Positions 25,877 to 37,875 of a stretch of 39,382 bases of DNA are shown here, in pieces. The position numbers and the translations under genes were made by a program. How positions within the stretch are numbered: the first letter of the stretch is position 1; each line of letters opens with the position of its first letter. This DNA comes from a virus (taxonomy: Duplodnaviria > Heunggongvirae > Uroviricota > Caudoviricetes). Under the pieces are notes generated by a model. That model searched no databases, had not been told where the DNA came from, and worked only from the letters and a program-made list of their open reading frames with translations. Location of the stretch: IMG/VR virus record IMGVR_UViG_2923296884_000001; one strand, 5' to 3'.

Positions 25877-26398
25877 CCAGAGTTGAACCATTTTCTGGGT
25901 GCCGTCAGGCTTGAGATTATCAATTTCAGAGAGAACGTAATATTGAATGGCTTCACAAACGGTGGTGTAGGGTGAATTACCTTCTTTAAGTGGCACGATA
26001 TTATTATTAACGCGAACCTGTATTTCATCGTTATACATTGCGATCGAAACAGGCGTGTGCACGAACGCGACTTCGCCAGGTGTGTCGTCAACCACCGTTT
26101 CAATACTAAAAGTCAGTTTTCGCTCATCATTGCTGCCCCGTGCTTTGGGGGTAGCGGCAGGGATCTGGGATAAAGGCATTCTGCGAAATCCTTCGGCTGC
26201 TTCCAGTCCGCATGAAACGTAATGCTGGCGATTACCGTCGCTATCTGTCCAGGTCTGTGATGGCAGCTCCAGCGAGATTTCATAAGCATCAACAATGCCC
26301 TGGGCAAGGCGTACAAGCGGGGTCAGATCTTCATTGCGGCGAAAGCTCTCCTTTACCTGCTCCCGTTTTTCTCTTAACTGCTTGTAATTAATGACCAT
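25874..26398 (-). CDS. hypothetical protein (about 174 aa), orphan gene between Q and the early-operon terminator
   Basis: ORF 25874..26437 with start refined to the ATG about 26398 (MVINYKQLREK...) preceded by a GGAGG SD; lower GC than neighbours; no family recognised. Confidence 0.6.
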   Translation of the reverse strand: MVINYKQLREKREQVKESFRRNEDLTPLVRLAQGIVDAYEISLELPSQTWTDSDGNRQHYVSCGLEAAEGFRRMPLSQIPAATPKARGSNDERKLTFSIETVVDDTPGEVAFVHTPVSIAMYNDEIQVRVNNNIVPLKEGNSPYTTVCEAIQYYVLSEIDNLKPDGTQKMVQLW

Positions 26399-26495
26399 AA
26401 GACAGCCTCCATTGATTTCTTTGCTCGTATTTTGCACTTATGAAGTATGGTCGGCAAGGTGCCGTATCGCTGACGCGCTTCGCTTGTCTGCTGCT

Positions 26496-26524
26496 TCGCC
26501 GGGGCATAAAAAATTTATGCCCCG
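26496..26524. repeat. 29-bp perfect palindrome GCCGGGGCATAAA-aaa-TTTATGCCCCGGC
   Basis: Read directly from the sequence; lies in the ~500-bp noncoding stretch upstream of the 174-aa gene. Confidence 0.7.
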
Positions 26525-26930
26525 GCTCTCCAGCTCCTGTATCAATCAGATAATTTCACGACGCCTTCCAGTTTATCGCCACCATCGACGGTCAGACTCT
26601 TACGCAATTCCACCGCGTTGACTGCATGTTCTCGCTGCCTCAGTGCGATTTTGACGGCCTTACCTTTCACCCCATCAAATCAAAAGCCCTCACGCCTTTT
26701 TCATGCTCAGCGTGAGAAATATGGCCATTCTGTTGTGTCTCTGCGACATCGTTCAGGGAATGCTATTTACCCCCTGAAACGCGGGCTGTTCCCCCGTCAC
26801 CTGCGCGCAGAAAAAGCGCGTTTTTTTGTGCACGCACGGATCCTTGACGGATCCAGCCGCCATGCGGGCCGGAAGGGTAAAAAGTCGTTCAAAAAAATTG
26901 TGCAAATTTGTGCACTTTTGTGCAAACAAA

Positions 26931-26956
26931 AAGCGCCCCTGAGGCGCTTTAGTGTT
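26931..26956. terminator. terminator of the leftward early/accessory operon (bidirectional stem-loop)
   Basis: AAGCGCC-cctga-GGCGCTT flanked by A/T runs, about 30 bp after the last minus-strand gene; preceded by three TTGTGCA direct repeats (26899-26930). Confidence 0.6.
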
Positions 26957-26984
26957 TTATAGGTTGTGTATATTTGCTGGGTCC

Positions 26985-27248
26985 TTATCCTGCTGTGCTT
27001 TCAACTGATGAGGGGAACAAAATCTTTTCATCAAACCCTGCATTCATATCATGGACAGCAACACACCAATCCATTGACGAACGATTATCAAGAGCCTCCA
27101 TGATTTCATCCATGCGGCGTAGGTCATACAGGTAAATGCTTTTATCGCCAATGGTGTAAAAACCAATTTTTTTCGGTGATGGACAGCGATCAAGAACGTC
27201 CTGTAATTCGCTCAACCATGCTTGTTCTTTTTTTGTCAAAGTTGCCAT
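26985..27248 (-). CDS. hypothetical protein (87 aa)
   Basis: Start ATG at 27248 with strong SD GAAAGGAG; packed TGAtATG against the upstream gene. Confidence 0.6.
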   Translation of the reverse strand: MATLTKKEQAWLSELQDVLDRCPSPKKIGFYTIGDKSIYLYDLRRMDEIMEALDNRSSMDWCVAVHDMNAGFDEKILFPSSVESTAG

Positions 27249-27249
27249 A

Positions 27250-27690
27250 TCACTCTCCTTTCCCATGAAGCATAGCGGCGCGGCAGGCGTTCCATATTTC
27301 GGCAGCAATATAGCGCTCGCTATCGGTTAATTTGTACGTGGAAACATAGCCAGAGAGCATTTCTACGTTTTCCGGAGTTGCTTCTTCCGGCACTACCGGC
27401 GCTGGCAAGGCAGCGTGATAGTAGAGTGGCATAGTTTTGTACAGTGGTTCGCCAGGACTTCCGTCAGCCTGATTCCATTCTTCAACCCAGGCATCAACAA
27501 CCGCTTTGCTGGTTGATACATGTTCTTCTGAATCTACATTTTGTCCTGATATACAGAACATAACTGCCTCTGCTTCCAGCGATGCCAGAGCAATTTCATA
27601 AGCCCGACGCTCAATATTGTCTCGGACGTCCAGGCTGCCTATGCGCTCTTTGATTTCTTTAATCAGTTCTTTGTCGGTAAAAGTGGTCAT
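27250..27690 (-). CDS. hypothetical acidic protein (146 aa)
   Basis: Start ATG at 27690 (MTTFTDKEL...) with SD AAAGGAG. Confidence 0.6.
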   Translation of the reverse strand: MTTFTDKELIKEIKERIGSLDVRDNIERRAYEIALASLEAEAVMFCISGQNVDSEEHVSTSKAVVDAWVEEWNQADGSPGEPLYKTMPLYYHAALPAPVVPEEATPENVEMLSGYVSTYKLTDSERYIAAEIWNACRAAMLHGKGE

Positions 27691-27691
27691 A

Positions 27692-28006
27692 TCAATCTCC
27701 TTTGGTACCAATGTTTACAGCCTGGTAAGCCTCTTTGAGCACCCAGTCAACAGCGTCTTTCCATGCTCCGGTTTCGACTGGCGGATTCTCACGCTTTACC
27801 TGTTCATAGAAACGCACCGCTCTAACCAGTCCATCTGACGGTTTTGCCTGTAGTGCAGCCTGAGCTATGCGGTATGCCTGGAGCATACGGGCGTCGTTGA
27901 TATCCATTCCGAACGGAATTTCTGATGATTGTGACTCTGCATCTTCAAGCCTGGCAATTTCTTTACGTAAGAAGTATTTCAACTCTTGTTTCTGTTTTCT
28001 GTTCAT
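27692..28006 (-). CDS. hypothetical protein (104 aa)
   Basis: ATG at 28006 overlaps the upstream stop (ATGA). Confidence 0.6.
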
Positions 28007-28335
28007 GCGTTTTTTTCCTTTTTGTCTGTCACTTCTTTCCTGATAATTTCATTGCACAAATCCACGCACTCATTGCAGATGTAAACAGACGGTCCGGCAA
28101 TCACCTTTGTGACTTCGTACTGGGATTTATTGCAGAAGCTGCAATAAACCGTCTTCTCGCCTGAAGTCCATGTTTTGCTGGTTTCGCCAGACATCAGTTG
28201 TTTGAGGTCTTTTTCACGACGAAGAACTATCTGGCCACATTCAGCTATTTTTTGGATGTTGACATTTTCTTCTTTCGCCAGCGCTTCCATCCGCTCAATC
28301 AGTCGCTGCGCTTTTTCTCTGTCAATGTGTTGCAT
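28003..28335 (-). CDS. small protein with a C-terminal ClpX-type C4 zinc finger
   Basis: C-terminus [36 protein letters not shown] closely matches the ClpX N-terminal zinc-binding domain (CSFCGK...[15 protein letters not shown]); strong SD AAGGGGGA. Confidence 0.7.
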
Positions 28336-28398
28336 TGTGTCCCCCTTGTTTATGCTCCCGGGTTAAAGTCATCAGGGCGGATGCGCCCTGATGTTGTG

Positions 28399-28710
28399 TT
28401 ATTCGGGAAATAACGCCCGGATATTTCCGGCCATCTGACTGGTTATCTGTGCGGCTGATACTGGCTGTGACGCGGGGCGTTCTGTCCTGGTTTGTGTCAT
28501 TGATAACGCCTCATCATCAGCCCATGCAGCCAGTCGGTAAGCCTCTGCCGGATTCATTTTCAGTAGTGCCAGCCCGGCCAGAAAAGCCACGCGTTGACCA
28601 CTTTTGCGGGCTTCTGGTGTAAGGCTGTCCAGCCAGGCGCATGCTTCGCCTTCGTTCTTGACGGCGGCGGGCTTCAGATAGAAACTTATCCGTCTGGTTG
28701 GTGTCGTCAT
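28399..28710 (-). CDS. parR: ParR-like partition adaptor (103 aa)
   Basis: ATG at 28710 four nt after the parM stop, SD AAGGAG; N-terminus ISFYLKPAAVKN...VAFLAGLALL resembles plasmid R1 ParR (IAFKLNPDVN...AALTAGLALY). Confidence 0.7.
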   Translation of the reverse strand: MTTPTRRISFYLKPAAVKNEGEACAWLDSLTPEARKSGQRVAFLAGLALLKMNPAEAYRLAAWADDEALSMTQTRTERPASQPVSAAQITSQMAGNIRALFPE

Positions 28711-28714
28711 TGGT

Positions 28715-29674
28715 TTACTCCTTGTCCATTGCGTACAGCCCATTAACCAGAGCAAACTGTGGCACCCCGTCCGCGATGAAAGTCGCATTAACTCCGCAGG
28801 CTTCGCGGATAGCGGGTGCCACAATCTCTGCCCCGCCACCGACAACCATCACCCGCCCGTAACCCGAAAAACCCGCCAGCGCGCGGATCACGCGTTGTTT
28901 CAGTGTTTCTTCCTTTTCACGAATAACCGCCATCAGGCTGGCGTAATGCGCGTCATTGTGGATGTGCTGGCGCAGCCAGGCTTCATCATGGCGATGTTCG
29001 ATAATGGTATTGGCGATGTGGTGACTGGTACGCATACCGTTAGTGGCCATCACCGACAGTACGGCATCGGCCATCAGGGAAACGCCTACGTGTGGATCGC
29101 AAAACACCTGGCTGATACCTGCCAGTTGTCCCTGAACCTTTGCCACATCCAGCGTGGTTCCGCCTAAATCCACAATCAGCAGGGATTCAAACGGACTCAT
29201 GTCAGCCAGTGCCTTAAAGCCAGCCGGAATGGATTCAGGCATAACCCGCACGTTACGGATAGTGAATGCTTCGCCGTTCTGGTACTCCACCGGGCGCATA
29301 ACGTTCGCTTTTTTGCGGTTGATGTTGGCCATGTCCGGCTGTGCGTTTGTGTCGAAATACTCGCTCAGTGGCAGGGTGACAACCACATCCACCTCCTGTG
29401 GCGTGATGCCTGATTTGACCAGCGCGTGATGAATGGCGATTACATTCACATCGCTGTACTGGTATTGCGTGTCGGTCGTCTGGACAAAGCGATCGCTAAC
29501 CGGATCAAAACCATAGCGCACGCCATCAAGCATGTAGTTCGCGGGCTGCATGCCACCGAACGGCGCAGACCATTCCGACTTGAAGCTGTTCGGGCTGATG
29601 GCGTTGCGGCGTTCGCCATTCTCAGTCCATGCCAGCTTGATGTTGGTGGAGCCGTCGTCGATACAAATTTTCAT
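28715..29674 (-). CDS. parM: ParM/StbA actin-like segregation ATPase
   Basis: 319 aa; MKICIDDGSTNIKLAW... with full-length similarity to plasmid R1 ParM (phosphate-1 motif DDGSTNIKL, VMPESIPAG, LIVDLGGTTLD, VVGGGAE). Confidence 0.9.
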   Translation of the reverse strand: MKICIDDGSTNIKLAWTENGERRNAISPNSFKSEWSAPFGGMQPANYMLDGVRYGFDPVSDRFVQTTDTQYQYSDVNVIAIHHALVKSGITPQEVDVVVTLPLSEYFDTNAQPDMANINRKKANVMRPVEYQNGEAFTIRNVRVMPESIPAGFKALADMSPFESLLIVDLGGTTLDVAKVQGQLAGISQVFCDPHVGVSLMADAVLSVMATNGMRTSHHIANTIIEHRHDEAWLRQHIHNDAHYASLMAVIREKEETLKQRVIRALAGFSGYGRVMVVGGGAEIVAPAIREACGVNATFIADGVPQFALVNGLYAMDKE

Positions 29675-29705
29675 GTCGCTTTTCCTTATGTTGATTAATT
29701 AATCG

Positions 29706-29816
29706 TTTACGGGATTCTGAAATCCCGTTTTTGCCTGTTTTGTGTGCGCTTCATATATCGCGGCGCGTTTTTTGCTCATTTACGGGATTTGTGAATCCCG
29801 TTTCTGTCTGTTTTTT
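29706..29816. repeat. two ~39-bp direct repeats, each with an ACGGGATT-nnnn-AATCCCGT palindrome; parC-like centromere or replication origin candidate
   Basis: Copies at 29706-29744 (in the A-parM gap) and 29779-29816 (within the last codons of A), 73 bp apart. Confidence 0.7.
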
Positions 29817-32573
29817 GTTTCCACTGGTCAGGCCACCCCGCAGCAGGTCTGCTTTGCGGCGGGCACGTTCAGTGGTTTCACTGATTCTCTGTGCGTGCTC
29901 TGCGTCGCGGATGGCGCGCAGCATGTCAGAAAGCACGGTAACGGGGGGGGTCATGGTGTTCTGGTCCTGCTGAAGTGTGGATGCCAGACGTGCGGCGGCT
30001 TCGGGGTCTGATGCCCCCAGCTGTTCCAGATAGCTGGCGACCGGGTTATGGCGGATCTCCGTGCTGCTTACGCCGTGATTACGGCTCAGGCGCTGCCAGA
30101 GCTGCGTGATTCGGCTGTCCGGGCGGGTATCCGGTTTGCGTACAATTTCAAATCCCTGCGGTGCAATGATGCTGCCGTCAACGTACAGGCTGCCGCCCCG
30201 TAACAGGTGCTGCATCTGCTGTTCACCGATATGCAGGCCGAGAGATTCGGCAGATTCCCGCCATTCTTTAGCGAGTAATTCGTGGTTATCAGGCAAAGGC
30301 CGCTGCTGTTTGCGGCTCTGTGTCCAGCTCTGCATTTCATCACTGCTGTTTTTTGCCTGTTTGTCACGCAGCGAACGCATCAGCGCCCGGCGTTCGTGCC
30401 GTTTCAGTGAGCGCATCCATTCGTTCACGTCAACGCCGTCAGGAAGCTGCGGCCACGGTGCTGGCCGTTCTTCCGGCTGTTCTGTCCCGTTGTTGTCCGT
30501 TTCCTGTACACGGGGACAGTTATTGCCACGAGTCCAAGGGGCGGCAGGGCCGCCCTGAAGGTCAAAACCATTTTCGCGGGCGCTGTCTTCCGCTTCCGGT
30601 TTACGTCTTACCAGCTTCCAGTTATCCGGATGCGTGCACACACGGGAGGATTCCCCGATGAGTGGTGACCAGATCCCGTAAATCTGTACGCTCTGTTCGC
30701 CGTAATCGTTCAGCTCATCTGCGAGGTCGTAGGCGGTGCGAATCAGGTAGTCTTTGCGTGGAACAAGTACGCCGCCCTGTTTTTCAATGTAGGTGGCAAA
30801 ACACCCGGCATCGGCGGCAGCGAGTACCGCATCCATTGCGTCATCTTTCAGTCGTTGCGGGCCTTCCGGGTTGCGTGCCATCTGGCTGGCAAGGCGGCGC
30901 AGTTCACGCCACACCTGACGGGAGGGGATGCCAAAGAACTGGAACTGGCGGACCCGATGAAGGCGCGCCCAGCCGATGGCGCGCTCCACACTCTCGGCCA
31001 TTGATTTTCCGGTTTCGTGGTCAACGCGTGGCTTGCCCGTTTTCGGGTCGATGCCATCCACGGCGCGGCTGTCCAGGTTCTTTCCGATGTAGGTCGCGAT
31101 ATAGCTGGTTGGTGTGCCTTTTGAGCCGTCGACATACTCCGCCTTAAAGCGCGGAGTAATATCATTGCCCAGCTCGTGGCGGTCTTCCTGAATGGCAATA
31201 TCGCGGGTATGGGACACAATGGTGTCGATTTCTTCCGGATGAGCAAAGACCATCATATGCCAGTGCACGGTGCCGTCATGGTGAGGCTCCACCGTGCGGA
31301 TGCCATACCAGCGAAGACCGTCGCGGTTCAGTTTTTTGCGGACCGCCGCAAAAAACGTGTTAACCAGGTAATAGCTGGAGTCGCGCATGGTGGCCCCGTT
31401 CCATTTGGGATTCGGATGACCGTTCTCTGTTGTGGCGTGGTATTTTGACGGGCAGGTGACAGTCAGAAACACCGCTTTGTCGCCACGGGCTTCGGCCAGA
31501 AGTTCCAGCCCCTTCATGGTGGCCATCATTTCTGCCTTACGGTGAACCGGGTTACTTACTCCCGCGTAATACACTGTCTCGAGATCAATCGTGAACCCGT
31601 CTTCGTTTTCCAGCATGAAACTTTTCAGGAAATCGCGTGTTTTCTCGCGCTGTGCGCGAAACTCGCTTAACGCGTCCTGGCTCAGATAGGGTGATGTTTT
31701 TCTGGAAACCAGACAGGCGGCGCGGAGTTGTTCTTCTCTCCACTCGCAACGTAACAGCCACAGTTTGCGTTTCCACCATTCCGCACAGGTCAGGCGAAGG
31801 ACTGCGCCCGGCAGCAGCTCCGTGTCCGGTTCGTTCCTCCGGTTTTTATCTGTTGTCAGTGCGTCATAATGTGGAGGCATGATGTGCAGGTGTAACGCCA
31901 TGCGGGCCAGCATCTGATACGCCTTCAGCGTTACATCCATGGTCAGCTCGCCATCTCTGGCACCAAAGCCATCACAGAGTTTTTCGAAGGTGCTGCTGAA
32001 CATCGCCGCCGTCATGGTGGCCAGCGTCTGTATCTGGTGTTTGTTGAGCTGCGGCAGGTAAAGCAAATCGTCCAGGCGTTCGCGTCCGGCAAGGGAGCGA
32101 TAACCCGGTGTCAGCCAGTGTCCGTCAGTGCGATCCAGACGTTCGAATATTTTGCGCAGGGTTCCGCGTGCATAGCGTTCCGCCTGCCAGCTCTTTTTGC
32201 CTTTCCGGCGATCGGCTTCCTGTTTTTTGCGCAGGAAGGAGAGGTGGCGAATAAGCGGATCGCGCAGATAGGACGGCAGCAGGCGCAGCGAGGCCATGGC
32301 TTCATCCACCGCGCCACGTGCCTGTTTTCTGGCTTCTCTGGCCAGTGTGATGGTTTTGTCCTGTTTTTCCTGTGCGTCCAGGCTTTTATTAATCAGGTTG
32401 CCCAGCGGCGTGGCGGAGAACGCCGCATCAGCCATTTCCTGGCGGCGCTCGTTCTCTGCCCGGTAGGCATCCAGCCAGGAGGAAAGCTCGGATTCAGGAG
32501 CGGGGATTCCCGTTCCTTCACGACCCACTGCGTGGCGCGGTTGTTGCCAGTCCCTGATGTACTCTGCCGTCAT
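29751..32573 (-). CDS. A: replication initiation protein A (rolling-circle endonuclease)
   Basis: 940-aa ORF with P2 gpA-type features; longer than P2 gpA (761 aa). Confidence 0.92.
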   Translation of the reverse strand: MTAEYIRDWQQPRHAVGREGTGIPAPESELSSWLDAYRAENERRQEMADAAFSATPLGNLINKSLDAQEKQDKTITLAREARKQARGAVDEAMASLRLLPSYLRDPLIRHLSFLRKKQEADRRKGKKSWQAERYARGTLRKIFERLDRTDGHWLTPGYRSLAGRERLDDLLYLPQLNKHQIQTLATMTAAMFSSTFEKLCDGFGARDGELTMDVTLKAYQMLARMALHLHIMPPHYDALTTDKNRRNEPDTELLPGAVLRLTCAEWWKRKLWLLRCEWREEQLRAACLVSRKTSPYLSQDALSEFRAQREKTRDFLKSFMLENEDGFTIDLETVYYAGVSNPVHRKAEMMATMKGLELLAEARGDKAVFLTVTCPSKYHATTENGHPNPKWNGATMRDSSYYLVNTFFAAVRKKLNRDGLRWYGIRTVEPHHDGTVHWHMMVFAHPEEIDTIVSHTRDIAIQEDRHELGNDITPRFKAEYVDGSKGTPTSYIATYIGKNLDSRAVDGIDPKTGKPRVDHETGKSMAESVERAIGWARLHRVRQFQFFGIPSRQVWRELRRLASQMARNPEGPQRLKDDAMDAVLAAADAGCFATYIEKQGGVLVPRKDYLIRTAYDLADELNDYGEQSVQIYGIWSPLIGESSRVCTHPDNWKLVRRKPEAEDSARENGFDLQGGPAAPWTRGNNCPRVQETDNNGTEQPEERPAPWPQLPDGVDVNEWMRSLKRHERRALMRSLRDKQAKNSSDEMQSWTQSRKQQRPLPDNHELLAKEWRESAESLGLHIGEQQMQHLLRGGSLYVDGSIIAPQGFEIVRKPDTRPDSRITQLWQRLSRNHGVSSTEIRHNPVASYLEQLGASDPEAAARLASTLQQDQNTMTPPVTVLSDMLRAIRDAEHAQRISETTERARRKADLLRGGLTSGNKKQTETGFTNPVNEQKTRRDI

Positions 32574-33017: not shown

Positions 33018-33248
33018 TTAATGGAGTTTGTTTTGCTGCTGGATGAGCTGCTGAAGCTCGCGCAGATCATCCGCCAGATAGCTGAAAACAGAGGCGGAAT
33101 AAATGTTTGATAGTGCGTGGCTGCGCTCATGCAGCATATTGATGTGCATGATTTGCGCGACGCGTGATGCGCGGAAAAGTCTGCGGTTGATTTCAGTCTG
33201 GATGTGACGACGCTCCGCGATAGCGCGGTGCTGTTTGCGGTTTGCCAT
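33018..33248 (-). CDS. hypothetical small basic protein (76 aa)
   Basis: ATG at 33248 with SD GAGAGG. Confidence 0.5.
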   Translation of the reverse strand: MANRKQHRAIAERRHIQTEINRRLFRASRVAQIMHINMLHERSHALSNIYSASVFSYLADDLRELQQLIQQQNKLH

Positions 33249-33426
33249 GATGTGGCCTCTCTGTTAGTTAGTTTTGAAAACTCACCATCCAGAGGTTCCA
33301 AGCTCGGGGTGGTGAGACGTACAGGGTTGGAACTACCGGCTAACAGAGGACCCGGCCCAGCTGATGCTGGCCCTGTACGCCCCACCATAATTCTGACGCG
33401 AAAAAGACGTGGCGATACGGCACGCA

Positions 33427-33448
33427 CAAAAAAACCGCTGGCGCGGTT
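33427..33448 (-). terminator. rho-independent terminator candidate (minus strand) between the SPFH module and the replication module
   Basis: Minus-strand AACCGC-gcca-GCGGTT followed by TTTTTTTG. Confidence 0.45.
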
Positions 33449-33615
33449 GTGCGCTCTGTTAGTCTGCGGGGTTCCAATCCCGGCACCCGTTTTATGAGGT
33501 GCAGCGGAAATGTAACCTGACTGATTGCGGCATGGCAAGCGGTTTTTTTGTGAGAACGGCATACTAAAAAATCCTGATACTGCTCCGGCCAGCGGTTTTC
33601 ACTGGCCGGGTTTAA

Positions 33616-34446
33616 TTACTTCACCGGAACAAACGGAACAGCGGTGTTACTGGTCATGTATTGCGGTAGCGTGCCGTTCCATTTGTTAATCGCTTCCAGC
33701 TCCATAACGCCGGGATTCTGGCGCAGAGCTTCACCGCGTAAACGAATGGCGTCGGCTTCAGCCTGGGCTTTTGTGCGAATGGCATCGGCTTGTCCGGCAG
33801 CTTCTGCGCGCAGCATGTTGGCTTCAGCTTCGCGTTGCTTGACTTCCTGTTCACGTTGCAGGGTTTTCTGGTTTGCCGTGACTTTGGCATTAATGCTGTC
33901 GATAACGGTTGGCGGGTATTCCGGCTTACCCACATAAGAGAGGCTCATTACCTGAATGCCGATAGGTGTCATTTCTGCCTGAATGTCTTTAAGTGCTGAA
34001 TCCAGCAGTTCAGACTTGCCACCGTCGATAAATTTATCGGTGGTCATTTTGCTGGCCAGTCGGTTGAGTGCGTCGGCGATCTTCTGGCGCAGGTCAGTGT
34101 CGGTAATGTCGTCCACGCCTTTGCGGTAGGTCTGAAACACCGTGGTAACTTTGGATGGATCAACTTTGTAGGCCACGCCGATGTGATAGCCGATGGTTGT
34201 GCCGTCACTCATCTGGAAGTTGAACGGCTCATCGTAAGTCTTCATTTGTTTGAAAGTCGGGAAGATGTAAACCTCTGTATTCCAGCCTGTCCAGTAGCGG
34301 CCAACGCCAACTACTTCGCCGACGCCTTTGTCGTCGCCCAGTTTGTTGACTTTGATTCCCACATTACCTGGCTCAACGCGATCGCAACCAACCAGCAGGA
34401 TGGCGGCAAAAAGCGGGAGAATCTGAAAGAGTTTGAATTTCTTCAT
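33616..34446 (-). CDS. SPFH/band-7 domain lipoprotein (276 aa)
   Basis: Signal peptide with lipobox LLVGC, then a region reading as an SPFH/band-7 domain, then a coiled-coil Ala/Glu/Gln-rich C-terminus; SD AAGGAA; overlaps the upstream gene (ATGA). Confidence 0.85.
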   Translation of the reverse strand: MKKFKLFQILPLFAAILLVGCDRVEPGNVGIKVNKLGDDKGVGEVVGVGRYWTGWNTEVYIFPTFKQMKTYDEPFNFQMSDGTTIGYHIGVAYKVDPSKVTTVFQTYRKGVDDITDTDLRQKIADALNRLASKMTTDKFIDGGKSELLDSALKDIQAEMTPIGIQVMSLSYVGKPEYPPTVIDSINAKVTANQKTLQREQEVKQREAEANMLRAEAAGQADAIRTKAQAEADAIRLRGEALRQNPGVMELEAINKWNGTLPQYMTSNTAVPFVPVK

Positions 34447-34646
34447 TGCTTGATTTCCTTGATGTACTTACTGAAAAGGCGAACAACGCCTGCCGGGTAC
34501 AGCATGGCAATGAAAATGCCCAGCAATACCAGGAAGGAGCTGTCTGATGAAATCATTCGGGGGAGTAGTCCTGCATACAGAATGAAAGAGACGAGGACGC
34601 ATACCAGCGCCCACATGTATGCGCGAAACCAGGTCTTTTTGTTCAT
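34443..34646 (-). CDS. small two-helix membrane protein (67 aa), partner of the SPFH gene
   Basis: Two hydrophobic helices (WALVCVLVSFILYAGLL, FLVLLGIFIAMLYPAGVV); translationally coupled on both sides. Confidence 0.65.
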   Translation of the reverse strand: MNKKTWFRAYMWALVCVLVSFILYAGLLPRMISSDSSFLVLLGIFIAMLYPAGVVRLFSKYIKEIKQ

Positions 34647-34861
34647 GTTGATTGCTCTCTTTTGTTATTCAGGAAAAAGTCAAAAACGTTATCGATGCGC
34701 ATCATGAGTTCGCGCTGCATCGCTTCTGGTGTTTCCGGTTCACCAGGCGACCCCAGCGTTGCGCAGAAATCAGCGATCTCGTGTTGAATGAGTTCTTTCA
34801 GCGTCGGTAAGGAATTCATGTGTGTGCGGCGATGCCTGCGTGTGATTCGCCTTCTGCTCAT
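34643..34861 (-). CDS. hypothetical protein (72 aa)
   Basis: Overlaps neighbours by ATGA at both ends; Arg-rich N-terminus. Confidence 0.5.
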   Translation of the reverse strand: MSRRRITRRHRRTHMNSLPTLKELIQHEIADFCATLGSPGEPETPEAMQRELMMRIDNVFDFFLNNKREQST

Positions 34862-35061
34862 TTACGCTGCTCCTGTACCTGTCGGATAAGGTTTACCCGC
34901 GCCACATTAGTGGCGCAGAAGTAAGTGCCGTCAGTGAGGTAGATGTGGTGTGCATCCTTTTCCGAACGATGTTTGTCGATAGTGGTAATCAGGCGTTCGT
35001 CGACCTCGTATTCGCGCCCTCTGGAGGTAAAGCGAACGACGGGAAAATGCTTAATTGCCAT
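34858..35061 (-). CDS. hypothetical protein (67 aa)
   Basis: Translationally coupled in the same operon. Confidence 0.5.
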   Translation of the reverse strand: MAIKHFPVVRFTSRGREYEVDERLITTIDKHRSEKDAHHIYLTDGTYFCATNVARVNLIRQVQEQRK

Positions 35062-35084
35062 TGCGCCCCCTTTGCCCAGTAACC

Positions 35085-35495
35085 CTATGCGTTAAATACG
35101 GTGCACTGTGCGTCATCAATGAATGCGACTTGAGAGCGCTCTATCAGGCGGAGATTTGTCAGAATTTCTGATTCCCTTATGGGGTGAGGAGTGATCAGGT
35201 ATTTATCCTGTAACCCGGCGATAATGGTGTATCGCTGTAGCTCCGAGCCAATTGTGTAAATAAGGCGTCCGGTGTTAGACAAATCCAGTCCGGTGACGGG
35301 TTGTGTTCTGAGAACCGCCAGTTCAGCATCCTGTTTTGCGATAATTTCGGCTGCTTCTGCCGTGACTCTTGCGACTATCAGTGTGTGGGTTGCGACGTCC
35401 ATATGATTATTTGCTATGGCTTTTTTCGCTACTACGTTTTCTGTCTTTGAAATTTCTTTCAGTGCTCTGATGATACCTTCTTCTTTTGCGTGCAT
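35085..35495 (-). CDS. hypothetical protein (136 aa)
   Basis: ATG at 35495 with SD GGAG; first gene of the coupled block ending with the SPFH gene. Confidence 0.6.
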   Translation of the reverse strand: MHAKEEGIIRALKEISKTENVVAKKAIANNHMDVATHTLIVARVTAEAAEIIAKQDAELAVLRTQPVTGLDLSNTGRLIYTIGSELQRYTIIAGLQDKYLITPHPIRESEILTNLRLIERSQVAFIDDAQCTVFNA

Positions 35496-35560
35496 TTTTG
35501 TATCTCCGTTATTTGCGTGTGCGAATACCTCCGTTAATACGGATGGTTTTCTCGTTTTCT

Positions 35561-35701
35561 TATTTAATTTGATGTTTTATTTGTATCGTTATTCACCAGT
35601 GAAAAACGTTCAATCTTTTTTACTGAATGAATAATTCGCATAATTCCAATAGCGCAGGCCACCGAAATAATCAGAACAAGCCATGAGATAAATATACTCA
35701 T
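35561..35701 (-). CDS. small hydrophobic single-TM protein (46 aa; not in ORF track)
   Basis: ATG at 35701 overlaps the upstream stop (ATGA); translation MSIFISWLVLIISVACAIGIMRIIHSVKKIERFSLVNNDTNKTSN. Confidence 0.45.
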
Positions 35702-35940
35702 GCGATATTCCCCAGCTTATACGGTTCAATATGTTCCCCGCATTCTGCGGCACAGATCAGCTCGGAAAGTTCGTTAAGTGCATCCAGATCATCAGCGTAA
35801 AAAGCCACGTCATACAGACTCCGGATTGCCCTGGTCAATGAGTCACGGGCTGCACGTTCAGCATGAGCGCCTGATGCACTTAAGCGAAAATAAAAACGCT
35901 CAAGTGCTTTGTTAATGAGAGTTTTATATTCTTTGCCCAT
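35698..35940 (-). CDS. hypothetical protein (80 aa)
   Basis: Start refined to the ATG at 35940 (MGKEYKTLINK...), SD AAAGGG. Confidence 0.5.
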   Translation of the reverse strand: MGKEYKTLINKALERFYFRLSASGAHAERAARDSLTRAIRSLYDVAFYADDLDALNELSELICAAECGEHIEPYKLGNIA

Positions 35941-35951
35941 CGCAACGCCCT

Positions 35952-36230
35952 TTAATCTGCTTTCTGAATTTCTGCTTCTGAATCCATACAAATAATTTCG
36001 ATATAGGGTTCATCGCCATTAGTCTTACGTGCTTTTTCCGCTTCGCTAATGATTTCGTGTACAGTCTGGTACGGAAGTTCTACGGTCAGGCGCGTGCCGT
36101 TCAGATAAACGTAAGTAGCTGCATTTTTTTCGGATGGAACGACTCCATCAATAGCTGATGCGCGTAATAACAGTTCACCGCGAAAATCAATAAAACGAAT
36201 AAATACACCTTGTGCATGCTCTTTGGTCAT
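35952..36230 (-). CDS. hypothetical protein (about 92 aa)
   Basis: Start refined to the ATG at 36230 (MTKEHAQGV...), 10 nt after the upstream stop. Confidence 0.5.
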   Translation of the reverse strand: MTKEHAQGVFIRFIDFRGELLLRASAIDGVVPSEKNAATYVYLNGTRLTVELPYQTVHEIISEAEKARKTNGDEPYIEIICMDSEAEIQKAD

Positions 36231-36240
36231 AAAGCACCTG

Positions 36241-36591
36241 TTATAAATCAGCCTGTTTAATAAAACTTTGTCCGCGAAGCAGACGATCAACTGTGCGAAG
36301 TGCTTCGTACAATGTGAAATCCTGCCCGAACTGATTGTCGCCGTTGCTCAGTGCAAAAATGCGGTTTCCGGTAAATGGGTTGCGCTGGCATCTGTGAACC
36401 ACGATTCCTGCTTTTTCAATCAGCCAAGTGTGTTCACCAATTTGTTTTACTGGGTAGCCATCCGGCGTTGCGTGTGTTTCGCTCAGGCTGTAGCGAGAGT
36501 TGCTACGTGATGCACTGGTAGCGAAACGGTTAGCATGGCGTTCCGCACCGTTGCGGAAGCGCTGCTGTGAAGAATTGCGCTGTAGTTTCAT
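36241..36591 (-). CDS. hypothetical protein (116 aa)
   Basis: ORF with ATG at 36591; SD weak; first gene after the low-GC insert. Confidence 0.5.
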   Translation of the reverse strand: MKLQRNSSQQRFRNGAERHANRFATSASRSNSRYSLSETHATPDGYPVKQIGEHTWLIEKAGIVVHRCQRNPFTGNRIFALSNGDNQFGQDFTLYEALRTVDRLLRGQSFIKQADL

Positions 36592-36728
36592 ATTAAAACT
36601 CTGTACCTTCGGTAAGGTGTACTCGTGTCACCTTGTATTGATTTGTGGTATTTTTTTTGTGTGTCTAGGACTTGGACTGGCCGGTTCAGGTCCTGGCTTA
36701 TGTTTAATTAAATTGTTAAGAGGTTTTC

Positions 36729-36920
36729 ATGTCAGAAGATAAAAAAGTTGTTAATTTGTTGAGTGAACTTAGTGCTGCTCTGGATAACATTAACCCTCCC
36801 AGGGTAAAAACGACGGGTGATAAAGACGCATTAAACACAGAGATTCATATATTACTGGCGTTAGTAACTGACAAAATTCAGCGTAAATACCCACCTGTCA
36901 CACAACTGGTTGATTTTTAA
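36729..36920 (+). CDS. hypothetical small protein (63 aa), opposite strand to the early operon
   Basis: ATG at 36729 preceded by AAGAGG and an AT-rich promoter-like stretch; low GC; convergent with the 139-aa gene. Confidence 0.5.
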   Translation: MSEDKKVVNLLSELSAALDNINPPRVKTTGDKDALNTEIHILLALVTDKIQRKYPPVTQLVDF

Positions 36921-36926
36921 TTTGAT

Positions 36927-37349
36927 TTATGCCGGGCTGCTCCCGGCATCTTCTAGCTGCCATAATGTCTCGTCACCTGATAGAGCAAAACGAAATGAGT
37001 GAAGTATATCCCCCCGAGAGAAGCTCACGGCTACAGCTGCGGGAAAGTCAAATATAATCCCACCTTCATTTTTAAAACGATTACGCAATTGATAGGCTAT
37101 CGGTTTGATTTGTGCAGGAAGAGTATCTATATCTCTTCCATTGACAACAGAATCTTTGTTTTCAAGTACTGATTTAGCGATTAGATATAGATGCCAGTAA
37201 CTGGTTACAATTGTTACTCCTGTGATGTGTCGTAAATTAATTGCAATTCGTCCGTTATTATGTTTTTCCGCAAGGTATTTCAGGTTATCAATTAATGCTT
37301 GGTCATTTTTTGAAATAGTTATTGTGAAATCTGACGTGTTTGTTTTCAT
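36927..37349 (-). CDS. hypothetical protein (about 140 aa), low-GC insert
   Basis: Start refined to the ATG at 37349 (MKTNTSDF...), 4 nt after the cox-like stop, SD AGAGG; the longer ORF-track version overlaps cox-like. Confidence 0.55.
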   Translation of the reverse strand: MKTNTSDFTITISKNDQALIDNLKYLAEKHNNGRIAINLRHITGVTIVTSYWHLYLIAKSVLENKDSVVNGRDIDTLPAQIKPIAYQLRNRFKNEGGIIFDFPAAVAVSFSRGDILHSFRFALSGDETLWQLEDAGSSPA

Positions 37350-37353
37350 ACGA

Positions 37354-37875
37354 TTAGTTGCCTCTGTTGTTTCTGAGTTGGTCCAGTTTTGAGCTTCTGC
37401 CTGTATAAACTCGCTTACCGTTAATGGTCTGGCAGTCTTCTTTATTAGCTGGAGAGAACTTCCTTTTCTGGCGGTCATACGTCCAGTAACTTTTCCAGTT
37501 GTGCCATTCTGGGGGCTCGTGCTCTGGTAGCTCATCAGCCAACTTGTCCCACTCTTTGGCGTTAAACCACCATACTCCGTCTGAGTTTTCATCTTCCGGG
37601 TTTGTGCGCGTCTTGTGTCCCGGCATTTGACCGCGATGAATGGCTACGCGCAGTGCAGATTTTGTTAGCCCAATATATGCCGCGCCTTTTTCCAGAGAGC
37701 AAAGCCCGGCGATCGGACCATCCAGCCGCAAAGTCGCTCCTTTTTTGTAGGAACGCTTTTTCTTGTTTTCTTCGTGCTCGTCGTCGTTGGCGGCATCAAT
37801 GGATCCGCTGAGTGCGTTACTTTCCTGAAGTGGTTGGTGGTCAGATAACTCTTTATCGGCAATGAAGTCCCGCAT
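37354..37875 (-). CDS. Cox/Apl-like HTH regulator-excisionase with N- and C-terminal extensions (173 aa)
   Basis: Central segment AAYIGLTKSALRVAIHRGQMP resembles P2 Cox (AKLIGKSTGAVRRMIDKGKLP); first gene of the leftward early operon, divergent from C; ATG at 37875 with SD AAGAGGA. Confidence 0.65.
   Translation of the reverse strand: MRDFIADKELSDHQPLQESNALSGSIDAANDDEHEENKKKRSYKKGATLRLDGPIAGLCSLEKGAAYIGLTKSALRVAIHRGQMPGHKTRTNPEDENSDGVWWFNAKEWDKLADELPEHEPPEWHNWKSYWTYDRQKRKFSPANKEDCQTINGKRVYTGRSSKLDQLRNNRGN

Follow-up and report, generated by a model that had tools for sequence, protein, structure and literature searches.

Prohibitin, stomatin, flotillin and HflK/C are SPFH scaffolds, which organise membranes in all domains of life. 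Prohibitin, HflK/C and erlin face the non-cytoplasmic side, and the QmcA-type SPFH proteins that are paired with NfeD proteins face the cytoplasm. To our knowledge, the viral roles of such scaffolds are essentially unstudied. Phage genome papers note the SPFH domain and speculate on HflKC/FtsH and lysogeny, or on adsorption. Here we describe an SPFH lipoprotein gene and its small membrane partner in IMG/VR record IMGVR_UViG_2923296884_000001, a stretch of 39,382 nucleotides (nt; hereafter the window) which is a complete 39.4-kb P88-type prophage (genus Xuanwuvirus, P2 family) of Escherichia coli. The real unit at this locus is a two-gene pair, in which a phrog_1130 member and a phrog_200 member are adjacent and co-directional. 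The closest described relatives are P88 gp11/gp12, phiP27 L05, SSU5_061/062, PVP-SE1 gp115/gp117 and Erwinia phage S6 gp044/gp045, where the same two families stand in the same order and on the same strand; they show no difference in kind from the pair of the window, which is another instance. The genes are already known, being annotated in P88 and in many other records, and the records of the phages named above call them only 'lipoprotein', 'membrane protein' or 'serine protease'. We found no description of the pairing with a two-helix partner, of partner-SPFH fusions, or of a periplasmic, lipid-anchored HflK/C-like architecture.

The elements of the pair are as follows (lengths in amino acids, aa; ORF, open reading frame; AF2, AlphaFold2).

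33616..34446, (-) strand: SPFH/Band-7 lipoprotein gene, 276 aa, phrog_200 (Pfam Band_7, phrog_200, AF2, Foldseek)
34384..34446, (-) strand: predicted signal peptide and lipobox (MKKFK, hydrophobic core, LVGC; Cys21), then Asp at +2 (read from the sequence)
34443..34646, (-) strand: partner gene for a 67-aa two-helix membrane protein, phrog_1130 (ORF, phrog_1130, hydropathy and charge)
34443..34446, (-) strand: ATGA start/stop overlap leading from the partner into the SPFH gene (sequence)

The original prediction for this DNA had proposed a 276-aa SPFH/band-7 lipoprotein whose gene is coupled to that of a 67-aa two-helix membrane protein, and both points hold up: the Pfam Band_7 profile (PF01145) matches residues 23-209 of the larger protein with 108.8 bits against a gathering cutoff of 23.6 (E 4.2e-31), the lipobox LVGC ends in Cys21, and the smaller gene encodes two hydrophobic segments and runs into the larger one through the ATGA overlap. 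The SPFH protein matches phrog_200 at 7e-112 and is 99.3% identical to gp12 of phage P88. Its N-terminus, MKKFKLFQILPLFAAILLVGC|D, reads as a lipoprotein signal and fits the lipobox pattern [LVI][ASTVI][GAS]C, the Cys of which reaches at least 90% conservation among the 81 aligned family sequences and does not vary in 18 fused homologues. Since Asp at +2 is the enterobacterial inner-membrane retention signal for lipoproteins, the protein should stay on the periplasmic face of the inner membrane.

The AF2 monomer model, for which 81 diverse homologues were aligned, has a predicted local distance difference test (pLDDT) score of 92.7 and displays an alpha/beta domain, a 65-residue helix (178-242) and a short second helix. 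On Foldseek comparison with the PDB, full-length matches were obtained to human prohibitin (8rrh, 7e-14) and HflK/C (7vhq, 8e-14), then to erlin and stomatin, over 240-300 columns and with E from 1e-11 to 1e-14, and flotillin and QmcA-YbbJ (8z5g, 2.4e-8) ranked lower. When the PDB was searched by sequence, HflK was the best match (E 7e-4). Only a single ORF among the 446 of the window matched the hidden Markov model (HMM) of the SPFH family, hence the locus is not a K/C-type gene pair. No defence-system model of PADLOC-DB 2.0 matched the SPFH protein, and the partner returned merely a 14-bit, 21-residue match to PDC-M18B.

The partner has hydrophobic segments at about residues 9-29 and 36-58, with tails of about 8-13 residues, and its net charge is +3 in the N-terminal tail, 0 in the loop and +3 in the C-terminal tail, from which a hairpin with both ends in the cytoplasm is predicted. 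The loop carries a conserved motif, LLPxMISSDS, and the whole protein matches phrog_1130 at 3.4e-22. Given that the 67-aa query retrieved close relatives only in a word-index search, a custom HMM of the partner domain was built; its sole match among the 446 window ORFs was the 34443-34646 ORF (3.4e-22).

The partner was found at 105 of the 110 SPFH loci collected, overlapping the SPFH gene by 4 nt in 69 of the 105 paired loci and by 20 nt in 23 of them. Furthermore, at each of 20 diverse IMG/VR loci the sole significant match of the partner HMM was the same-strand ORF directly 5' of the SPFH gene (E <=6e-9, the next best being 0.11 among 2735 ORFs). The lambdoid phage phiP27 has an SPFH gene near int-xis, with ~92% nucleotide identity to that of the window over the aligned part of the gene, preceded by a 62-aa two-helix ORF which overlaps the SPFH start by 4 nt, matches phrog_1130 at 2.5e-23 and is 26% identical to the window partner. 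In SSU5-like phage-plasmids a 78-aa partner overlaps the SPFH gene by 20 nt. Directly 5' of SPFH genes the HMM also matched in SSU5 (4e-17), the N4-like Erwinia phage S6 (6e-16) and the rV5-like PVP-SE1 (2e-14), and in the LUZ24-like Pseudomonas phage Ab22 it did so two genes 5' (1e-7); the match was weaker in a crAss-like phage (5e-5) and weak in phiE125 (0.03). Among species-representative genomes, matches were obtained beside SPFH relatives down to ~37% identity. By eye, some distant homologues show a two-helix 5' ORF or an N-terminal extension with a similar loop motif, and others show none. Judging from these sequences, the partner and the SPFH lipoprotein very probably form an obligate pair.

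The two proteins also occur as a single chain. Seventeen of the best 150 family representatives measure 330-390 aa and carry an N-terminal two-helix extension with the loop motif P-x-[LM]-[IV]-S-[SA]; for all eight extensions tested, phrog_1130 was the best of 38,880 PHROGs (8e-10 to 2e-3). Three fusions were checked on their contigs.

L113 6001-7149: fused partner-SPFH ORF
L114 5001-6077: fused partner-SPFH ORF, 358 aa
L116 5001-6092: fused partner-SPFH ORF

They are uninterrupted called genes with phage-like neighbours (RtcB, HNH, D5 primase, SNF2), the lipobox Cys is invariant after the third hydrophobic helix, and one of them is identical in two independent samples. The model of one fusion shows three N-terminal helices and then the SPFH domain. 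Hence the predicted topology of the fused forms is in, out, in, out, which would place the SPFH domain in the periplasm, and their existence favours a 1:1 association of the two parts. Signal peptidase II might cleave the fused forms at the internal lipobox and so release a mature lipoprotein from a membrane piece with three helices. When a fused protein was compared with isolated phages by tblastn, the alignments spanned the SPFH part alone.

Several other features were noted at these loci. An RtcB RNA-ligase gene lies one to three genes from the SPFH gene in three distant contexts: one is Caulobacter phage Magneto, and the other two are metagenomic contigs bearing the fused form.

L110 3630-4862: RtcB gene near an SPFH gene
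L113 4701-5924: RtcB gene near an SPFH gene
L116 2327-3535: RtcB gene near an SPFH gene

The partner ORF is unannotated in the phiP27 RefSeq record (L002 3304-3492, (-) strand) and in the annotation of pEc-050-T0_3 by the Prokaryotic Genome Annotation Pipeline (PGAP; L084 5828-6046, (-) strand), and in several Shiga toxin (Stx) phage records the SPFH gene bears the outdated name 'serine protease'. In pEc-050-T0_3, an SSU5-like element of E. coli (L084 3742-7167), the pair stands between tRNA genes (Ile, Ser, Thr, Asn) and ~700 bp from the gene of the Thoeris anti-defence protein Tad2, a setting which hints at an accessory or counter-defence region. Tiny one- or two-helix membrane ORFs are seen just 3' of the SPFH gene on the SSU5-like contig L062 (4842-4973, (+) strand) and in PVP-SE1 (gp118 and gp119; L107 3389-3838, (+) strand); these are possible additional components.

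We next compared the pair with cellular systems of related build. It resembles HflK/HflC-FtsH in its full-length fold (SPFH domains, long coiled-coil helix and C-terminal segment), in its inner-membrane anchoring and in the predicted periplasmic position of the SPFH domain. It differs in that the window protein falls far below the HflK and HflC family cutoffs and is encoded by a single SPFH gene. Moreover, HflK/C are anchored by a transmembrane helix, whereas the anchor of the window SPFH protein would be a lipid-modified Cys and the membrane span lies in a separate 67-aa protein.

The original prediction had likened the pair to SPFH/NfeD operons. In part this stands: as in QmcA-YbbJ, YqiK-YqiJ and archaeal stomatin-STOPP, a small membrane gene is adjacent to, co-directional with and coupled to the SPFH gene, and its product probably sits with the SPFH ring. 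However, a search for NfeD in the partner (PF01957) gave no Pfam match at E <=0.1, and the partner has no room for an OB-fold (oligonucleotide/oligosaccharide-binding fold), since its 67 aa are taken up by two transmembrane helices and short tails; furthermore, the window SPFH protein is a predicted exported lipoprotein.

The Bacillus subtilis proteins YdjG/YdjH-YdjI (SamGHI) and PspA offer another likeness: in this stress-related operon, an SPFH protein is reported to be brought to the membrane by small membrane proteins. YdjI differs from the window protein in being cytosolic and cellular and in acting together with PspA, and the two systems are likened by description, not by sequence. Finally, PM0222 of Pasteurella multocida is a 25-35 kDa HflK/C-like protein encoded on a lambda-like prophage island; it is found in outer-membrane vesicles and signals through Toll-like receptors (TLR) 1/2, and its deletion attenuates virulence (PMC9872710). 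It is likewise a prophage-borne SPFH protein of similar size, and TLR1/2 activity is consistent with a lipoprotein, this comparison being by description only; it differs in being described as a vesicle-borne virulence factor.

The SPFH pair is optional accessory cargo and not a replication function. The canonical P2 early set consists of cox, orf78, B, orf80-83 and A and holds no SPFH gene, as had been supposed at the outset. The check in related prophages that had been proposed with that claim likewise separates carriers from non-carriers: P88 has the pair at the same early-operon site with different upstream genes, P2 lacks it, and vB_EcoM-569R5 and others have two unrelated genes at its site. 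Among 5426 complete E. coli genomes an SPFH allele was detected at nucleotide level in 391, the full window-type pair in ~143 and a P88-type gpA region in ~998. The accessory status thus follows from absence in P2 and in P88 relatives and from ~143 carriers against ~998 gpA-bearing genomes, and a universally conserved block with a replication role is highly improbable.

At the level of the family, SPFH homologues form 2867 clusters at E <=1e-3 and 222 at E <=1e-30 (50% identity clusters), and of 50,697 phage records, 380 have such a homologue. Represented among them are strictly virulent N4-like, LUZ24-like, rV5-like and phiCbK-like phages as well as crAss-like phages, jumbo phages and Lak megaphages; the presence in strictly virulent phages means that the family is not specific to lysogeny. 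In the genomes examined the SPFH gene lies among early or DNA-metabolism genes and never in the lysis cassette, and in PVP-SE1 two annotated promoters stand just 5' of the SPFH locus.

The prophage itself is 100% identical, over the regions tested, to one in E. coli U15A, a uropathogenic urine isolate, where it adjoins dmsA; its late genes are ~94-95% identical to those of phages P88, P884B11 and 500465-2, and the P2-type late region is present separately in the window. The early operon, on the (-) strand, extends from a gene of the Cox family (37354-37875) as far as replication gene A (29751-32573; Pfam Phage_GPA 1e-130). The SPFH pair shares its strand with cox and gpA, a Pe-like site (37994-37965) lies upstream of it, and the promoter scan called no promoter-like site directly 5' of it. 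The remaining features around the pair are given below.

33585..33609, (-) strand: hairpin just after the SPFH stop, 10-bp stem and 5-nt loop (RNAfold)
33428..33502, (-) strand: isrK-like Hfq-binding small RNA (sRNA) (Rfam RF01394, 72.4 bits against a gathering cutoff of 50)
33305..33392, (-) strand: C4-type antisense RNA (Rfam RF01695, 78.5 bits against a gathering cutoff of 45)
33018..33248, (-) strand: 76-aa 'derepression protein' ORF (Pfam PF25738 1.4e-7; phrog_3688 2.7e-46; P88 annotation)
34643..34861, (-) strand: 72-aa ORF, ead/Ea22-like remnant (phrog_4144, profile positions 34-99 only)
34858..35061, (-) strand: 67-aa ORF, phrog_3459, also in vB_EcoM-569R5, which has no SPFH pair
35085..35495, (-) strand: 136-aa ORF, phrog_9338, in vB_EcoM-569R5 and absent from P88

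The pair had originally been placed at the end of a block of five coupled genes. All five ORFs were confirmed on the (-) strand and three ATGA junctions are real (34443-34446, 34643-34646 and 34858-34861), but the fifth ORF (35085-35495) stands 23 nt apart. As a unit the block does not survive: the other three ORFs differ between the window prophage and P88, one of them is a remnant, and the pair alone is conserved. In the remnant, the 72-aa ORF, only the last 49 residues match the 104-aa P88 gp10 (residues 52-100, 69% identity), and PGAP calls it a pseudogene. Further upstream, window positions 35500-37500 are AT-rich, with a GC content of 0.38-0.46 against ~0.53 for the prophage, and hold small early ORFs (DUF4754, DUF4761 and unnamed ones); the low GC suggests separately acquired cargo in the early operon.

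On the other side of the pair, the terminator-like hairpin that had been noted there is a stable hairpin directly after the SPFH stop; the terminator scan, however, did not call the site, and its T-run (33566-33571) is 13 nt beyond the stem, a distance at which the hairpin is not a canonical intrinsic terminator. Likewise, the ~370 bp described as noncoding DNA before the replication module (33249-33615, 367 bp) contain the isrK-like and C4-type RNAs, and the next ORF is the derepression protein. The promoter/terminator scan gave the isrK-like sRNA a promoter-like site (33538-33509) and a terminator of its own (33448-33433), and a search for tRNA and tmRNA genes in the 367 bp found none. By its sequence, 33018-33615 is a P1 immI-like / Gifsy-1 isrK-like antirepressor control cassette, separate from the SPFH pair. 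PGAP labels a frame overlapping the sRNA/derepression region 'ash family protein, incomplete', and 758 complete E. coli genomes contain the 367-bp region with a coverage of >=80%. Beyond gpA, window positions ~26000-29700 on the (-) strand encode a ParM-type segregation ATPase, a partition/stability protein and a ClpX-type zinc-finger protein, according to the RefSeq annotation of the identical U15A region; an integrated P2-family prophage thus carries partition genes of a plasmid-like kind.

The explanation which we consider best overall, with confidence a little better than even, is a two-gene accessory cassette that builds a periplasm-facing SPFH assembly with a hairpin partner and is made early in lytic growth. 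The 67-aa partner would form a hairpin in the inner membrane, its two ends cytoplasmic and its short conserved loop in the periplasm. The SPFH protein would be exported, lipid-modified at Cys21 and held by Asp at +2 on the periplasmic face of the inner membrane; this location and orientation are probable from the sequence, and the fused homologues with their transmembrane helices support the inner membrane. There the lipoprotein may form, by analogy with HflK/C or prohibitin, a ring or cage above a patch of the inner membrane, and the partner may supply, at about 1:1 as in the three-helix fusions, the transmembrane palisade that HflK/C make from their own helices. By this analogy a cage with a partner fence is marginally on the probable side. 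Co-transcribed with the early genes, the pair would be made early in lytic growth and not in the lysogen. The role of the cage would be to fence off, or to shield, a conserved target in the inner membrane, and conservation across distant hosts and in virulent phages points to a universal target rather than one specific to lysogeny or to a receptor. As a first guess, and an unlikely one, the client could be membrane quality control of the FtsH type.

Several observations weigh against this explanation or parts of it. Most of the 105 paired loci are closely related, so that independent lineages number in the tens and not in the hundreds, and the partner HMM had no match beside many distant SPFH homologues (Cytophagales, Novosphingobium, Caulobacter phage Magneto), hence either the pair is not universal or the partner has diverged past detection there. 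The share of fusions is probably overstated, given that cluster representatives may be the longest members, and the N-terminal helices of the fused model have moderate confidence (pLDDT 65-82). Furthermore, the structure predictions cover monomers only, so that cage and complex rest on analogy. Membership in HflK or HflC was tried and rejected, the protein scoring 24.8 bits against a cutoff of 134.4 for HflC and 22.7 against 159.4 for HflK (NCBIfam equivalog cutoffs). An Arg at +3 could weaken retention by Asp at +2. Expression confined to the early phase is something we infer from the position in the operon, by analogy with P2, and the scan called six promoter-like sites where 6.4 were expected by chance. 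Finally, a full-text literature search returned annotations and speculation only, and no functional study of phage SPFH proteins.

Among the other explanations, superinfection exclusion is about as likely as an FtsH-type client, which is to say possible and rather unlikely, and less weight goes to lysogenic conversion, to lysis timing and to a replication role. For exclusion, the hairpin and the periplasmic lipoprotein would block the entry of other phages' DNA once the lytic programme has begun. Most of the known envelope proteins that phages make early serve in exclusion, T4 Imm/Sp, P22 SieA, T5 Llp and TP-J34 Ltp being named parallels, and the position in an early operon together with the predicted envelope location is in line with this. 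The patchy accessory distribution fits as well, as does exchange between phage types, attested by the 92% nucleotide identity between SPFH genes of P2-like and Stx/phiP27 phages, and the location near int-xis in phiP27 is typical of such cargo. Yet exclusion proteins are usually phage- or receptor-specific and fast-evolving, whereas conservation of the SPFH family spans coliphages, crAss-like phages and Pseudomonas phages; the PADLOC models do not match the protein, and a cage over small membrane patches would be an odd means of stopping DNA entry.

In an equally tentative reading, the phage protein mimics HflK/C on FtsH, which it would capture or displace, or for which it would compete with HflKC, thereby altering the turnover of membrane proteins of phage or host and of regulators of the lambda CII type. 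Its best structural relatives include the HflK/C-FtsH complexes 7vhq, 7wi3 and 9cz2 in addition to prohibitin, HflK heads the PDB sequence search, and the predicted periplasmic orientation is that of HflK/C. The position of the genes can be read in the same way: lambda encodes its FtsH inhibitor CIII leftward of the immunity region, and the phiP27/Stx pair lies leftward of that region too, on the int-xis strand. A target as universal as FtsH would suit the family's broad host range, and the HflKC/FtsH idea has also been raised in phage papers. On the other hand, the HflK and HflC equivalog models are missed by more than 100 bits, there is one SPFH gene instead of a K/C pair, the SPFH protein has no N-terminal transmembrane helix of its own, and strictly virulent carriers exclude a pure lysis-lysogeny role.

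It is improbable that the pair is a factor of lysogenic conversion or virulence, expressed from the prophage and aiding the host through membrane-stress tolerance or as a TLR2-active vesicle lipoprotein. PM0222 is a precedent of a prophage-borne HflK/C-like virulence factor (PMC9872710), the window matches the uropathogenic isolate U15A, and host HflKC is reported to contribute to aminoglycoside and oxidative-stress tolerance (PMC10434171). However, the pair is translationally coupled within an early operon and its own promoter signal is not above chance, homologues occur in strictly virulent phages, Asp at +2 and the fused forms favour inner-membrane retention over surface exposure, and PM0222 is likened to the phrog_200 family by description rather than by sequence comparison. 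A role in lysis timing or membrane integrity is slightly more doubtful still. Here the partner would be holin- or antiholin-like, and the SPFH cage would restrain it or stabilise the energised membrane until lysis. The size and topology of the partner resemble a class-II holin, secondary matches to holin PHROGs were obtained for a fused N-terminus (phrog_2877, 0.0012) and for the 78-aa partner of L062 (phrog_565, 0.065), further small membrane ORFs flank the pair in PVP-SE1, and the B. subtilis SPFH protein YdjI/SamI is reported to link PspA to the membrane. Against this, the pair is in the lysis cassette of no genome examined, the holin matches are weak and typical of hydrophobic composition, and the window has its separate P2-type late region. 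A true SPFH/NfeD pair, or a five-gene block with a P2-type replication role, is highly improbable: the coupled 5' small membrane gene resembles ybbJ-qmcA-type operons and the block lies between early regulators and gpA, but NfeD membership is refuted by the missing profile match and OB-fold room, prohibitin and HflK/C both outrank QmcA-YbbJ (8z5g) in the structural comparison, conservation of the pair does not extend to the three upstream ORFs, and most P88-type prophages that keep gpA lack it, as does P2.

The favoured explanation, a periplasm-facing SPFH assembly with its hairpin partner, bears on a phage family that has hitherto been labelled just 'lipoprotein' or, wrongly, 'serine protease'. 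For the prophage itself the pair is ordinary optional cargo. As two small genes whose product is predicted to face the periplasm with a dedicated partner, it is directly testable in E. coli, and it could serve as a minimal model of how SPFH cages are anchored and of what they enclose. A more far-reaching version, to which we give a lower probability still than to the FtsH client, is that of a widespread phage device in which an HflK/C-like periplasmic cage captures or shields a universal membrane machine, FtsH or a comparable one, early in infection. If true, this would be a general mechanism of host takeover or counter-defence common to hundreds of phages, temperate and virulent, that infect Gram-negative bacteria.

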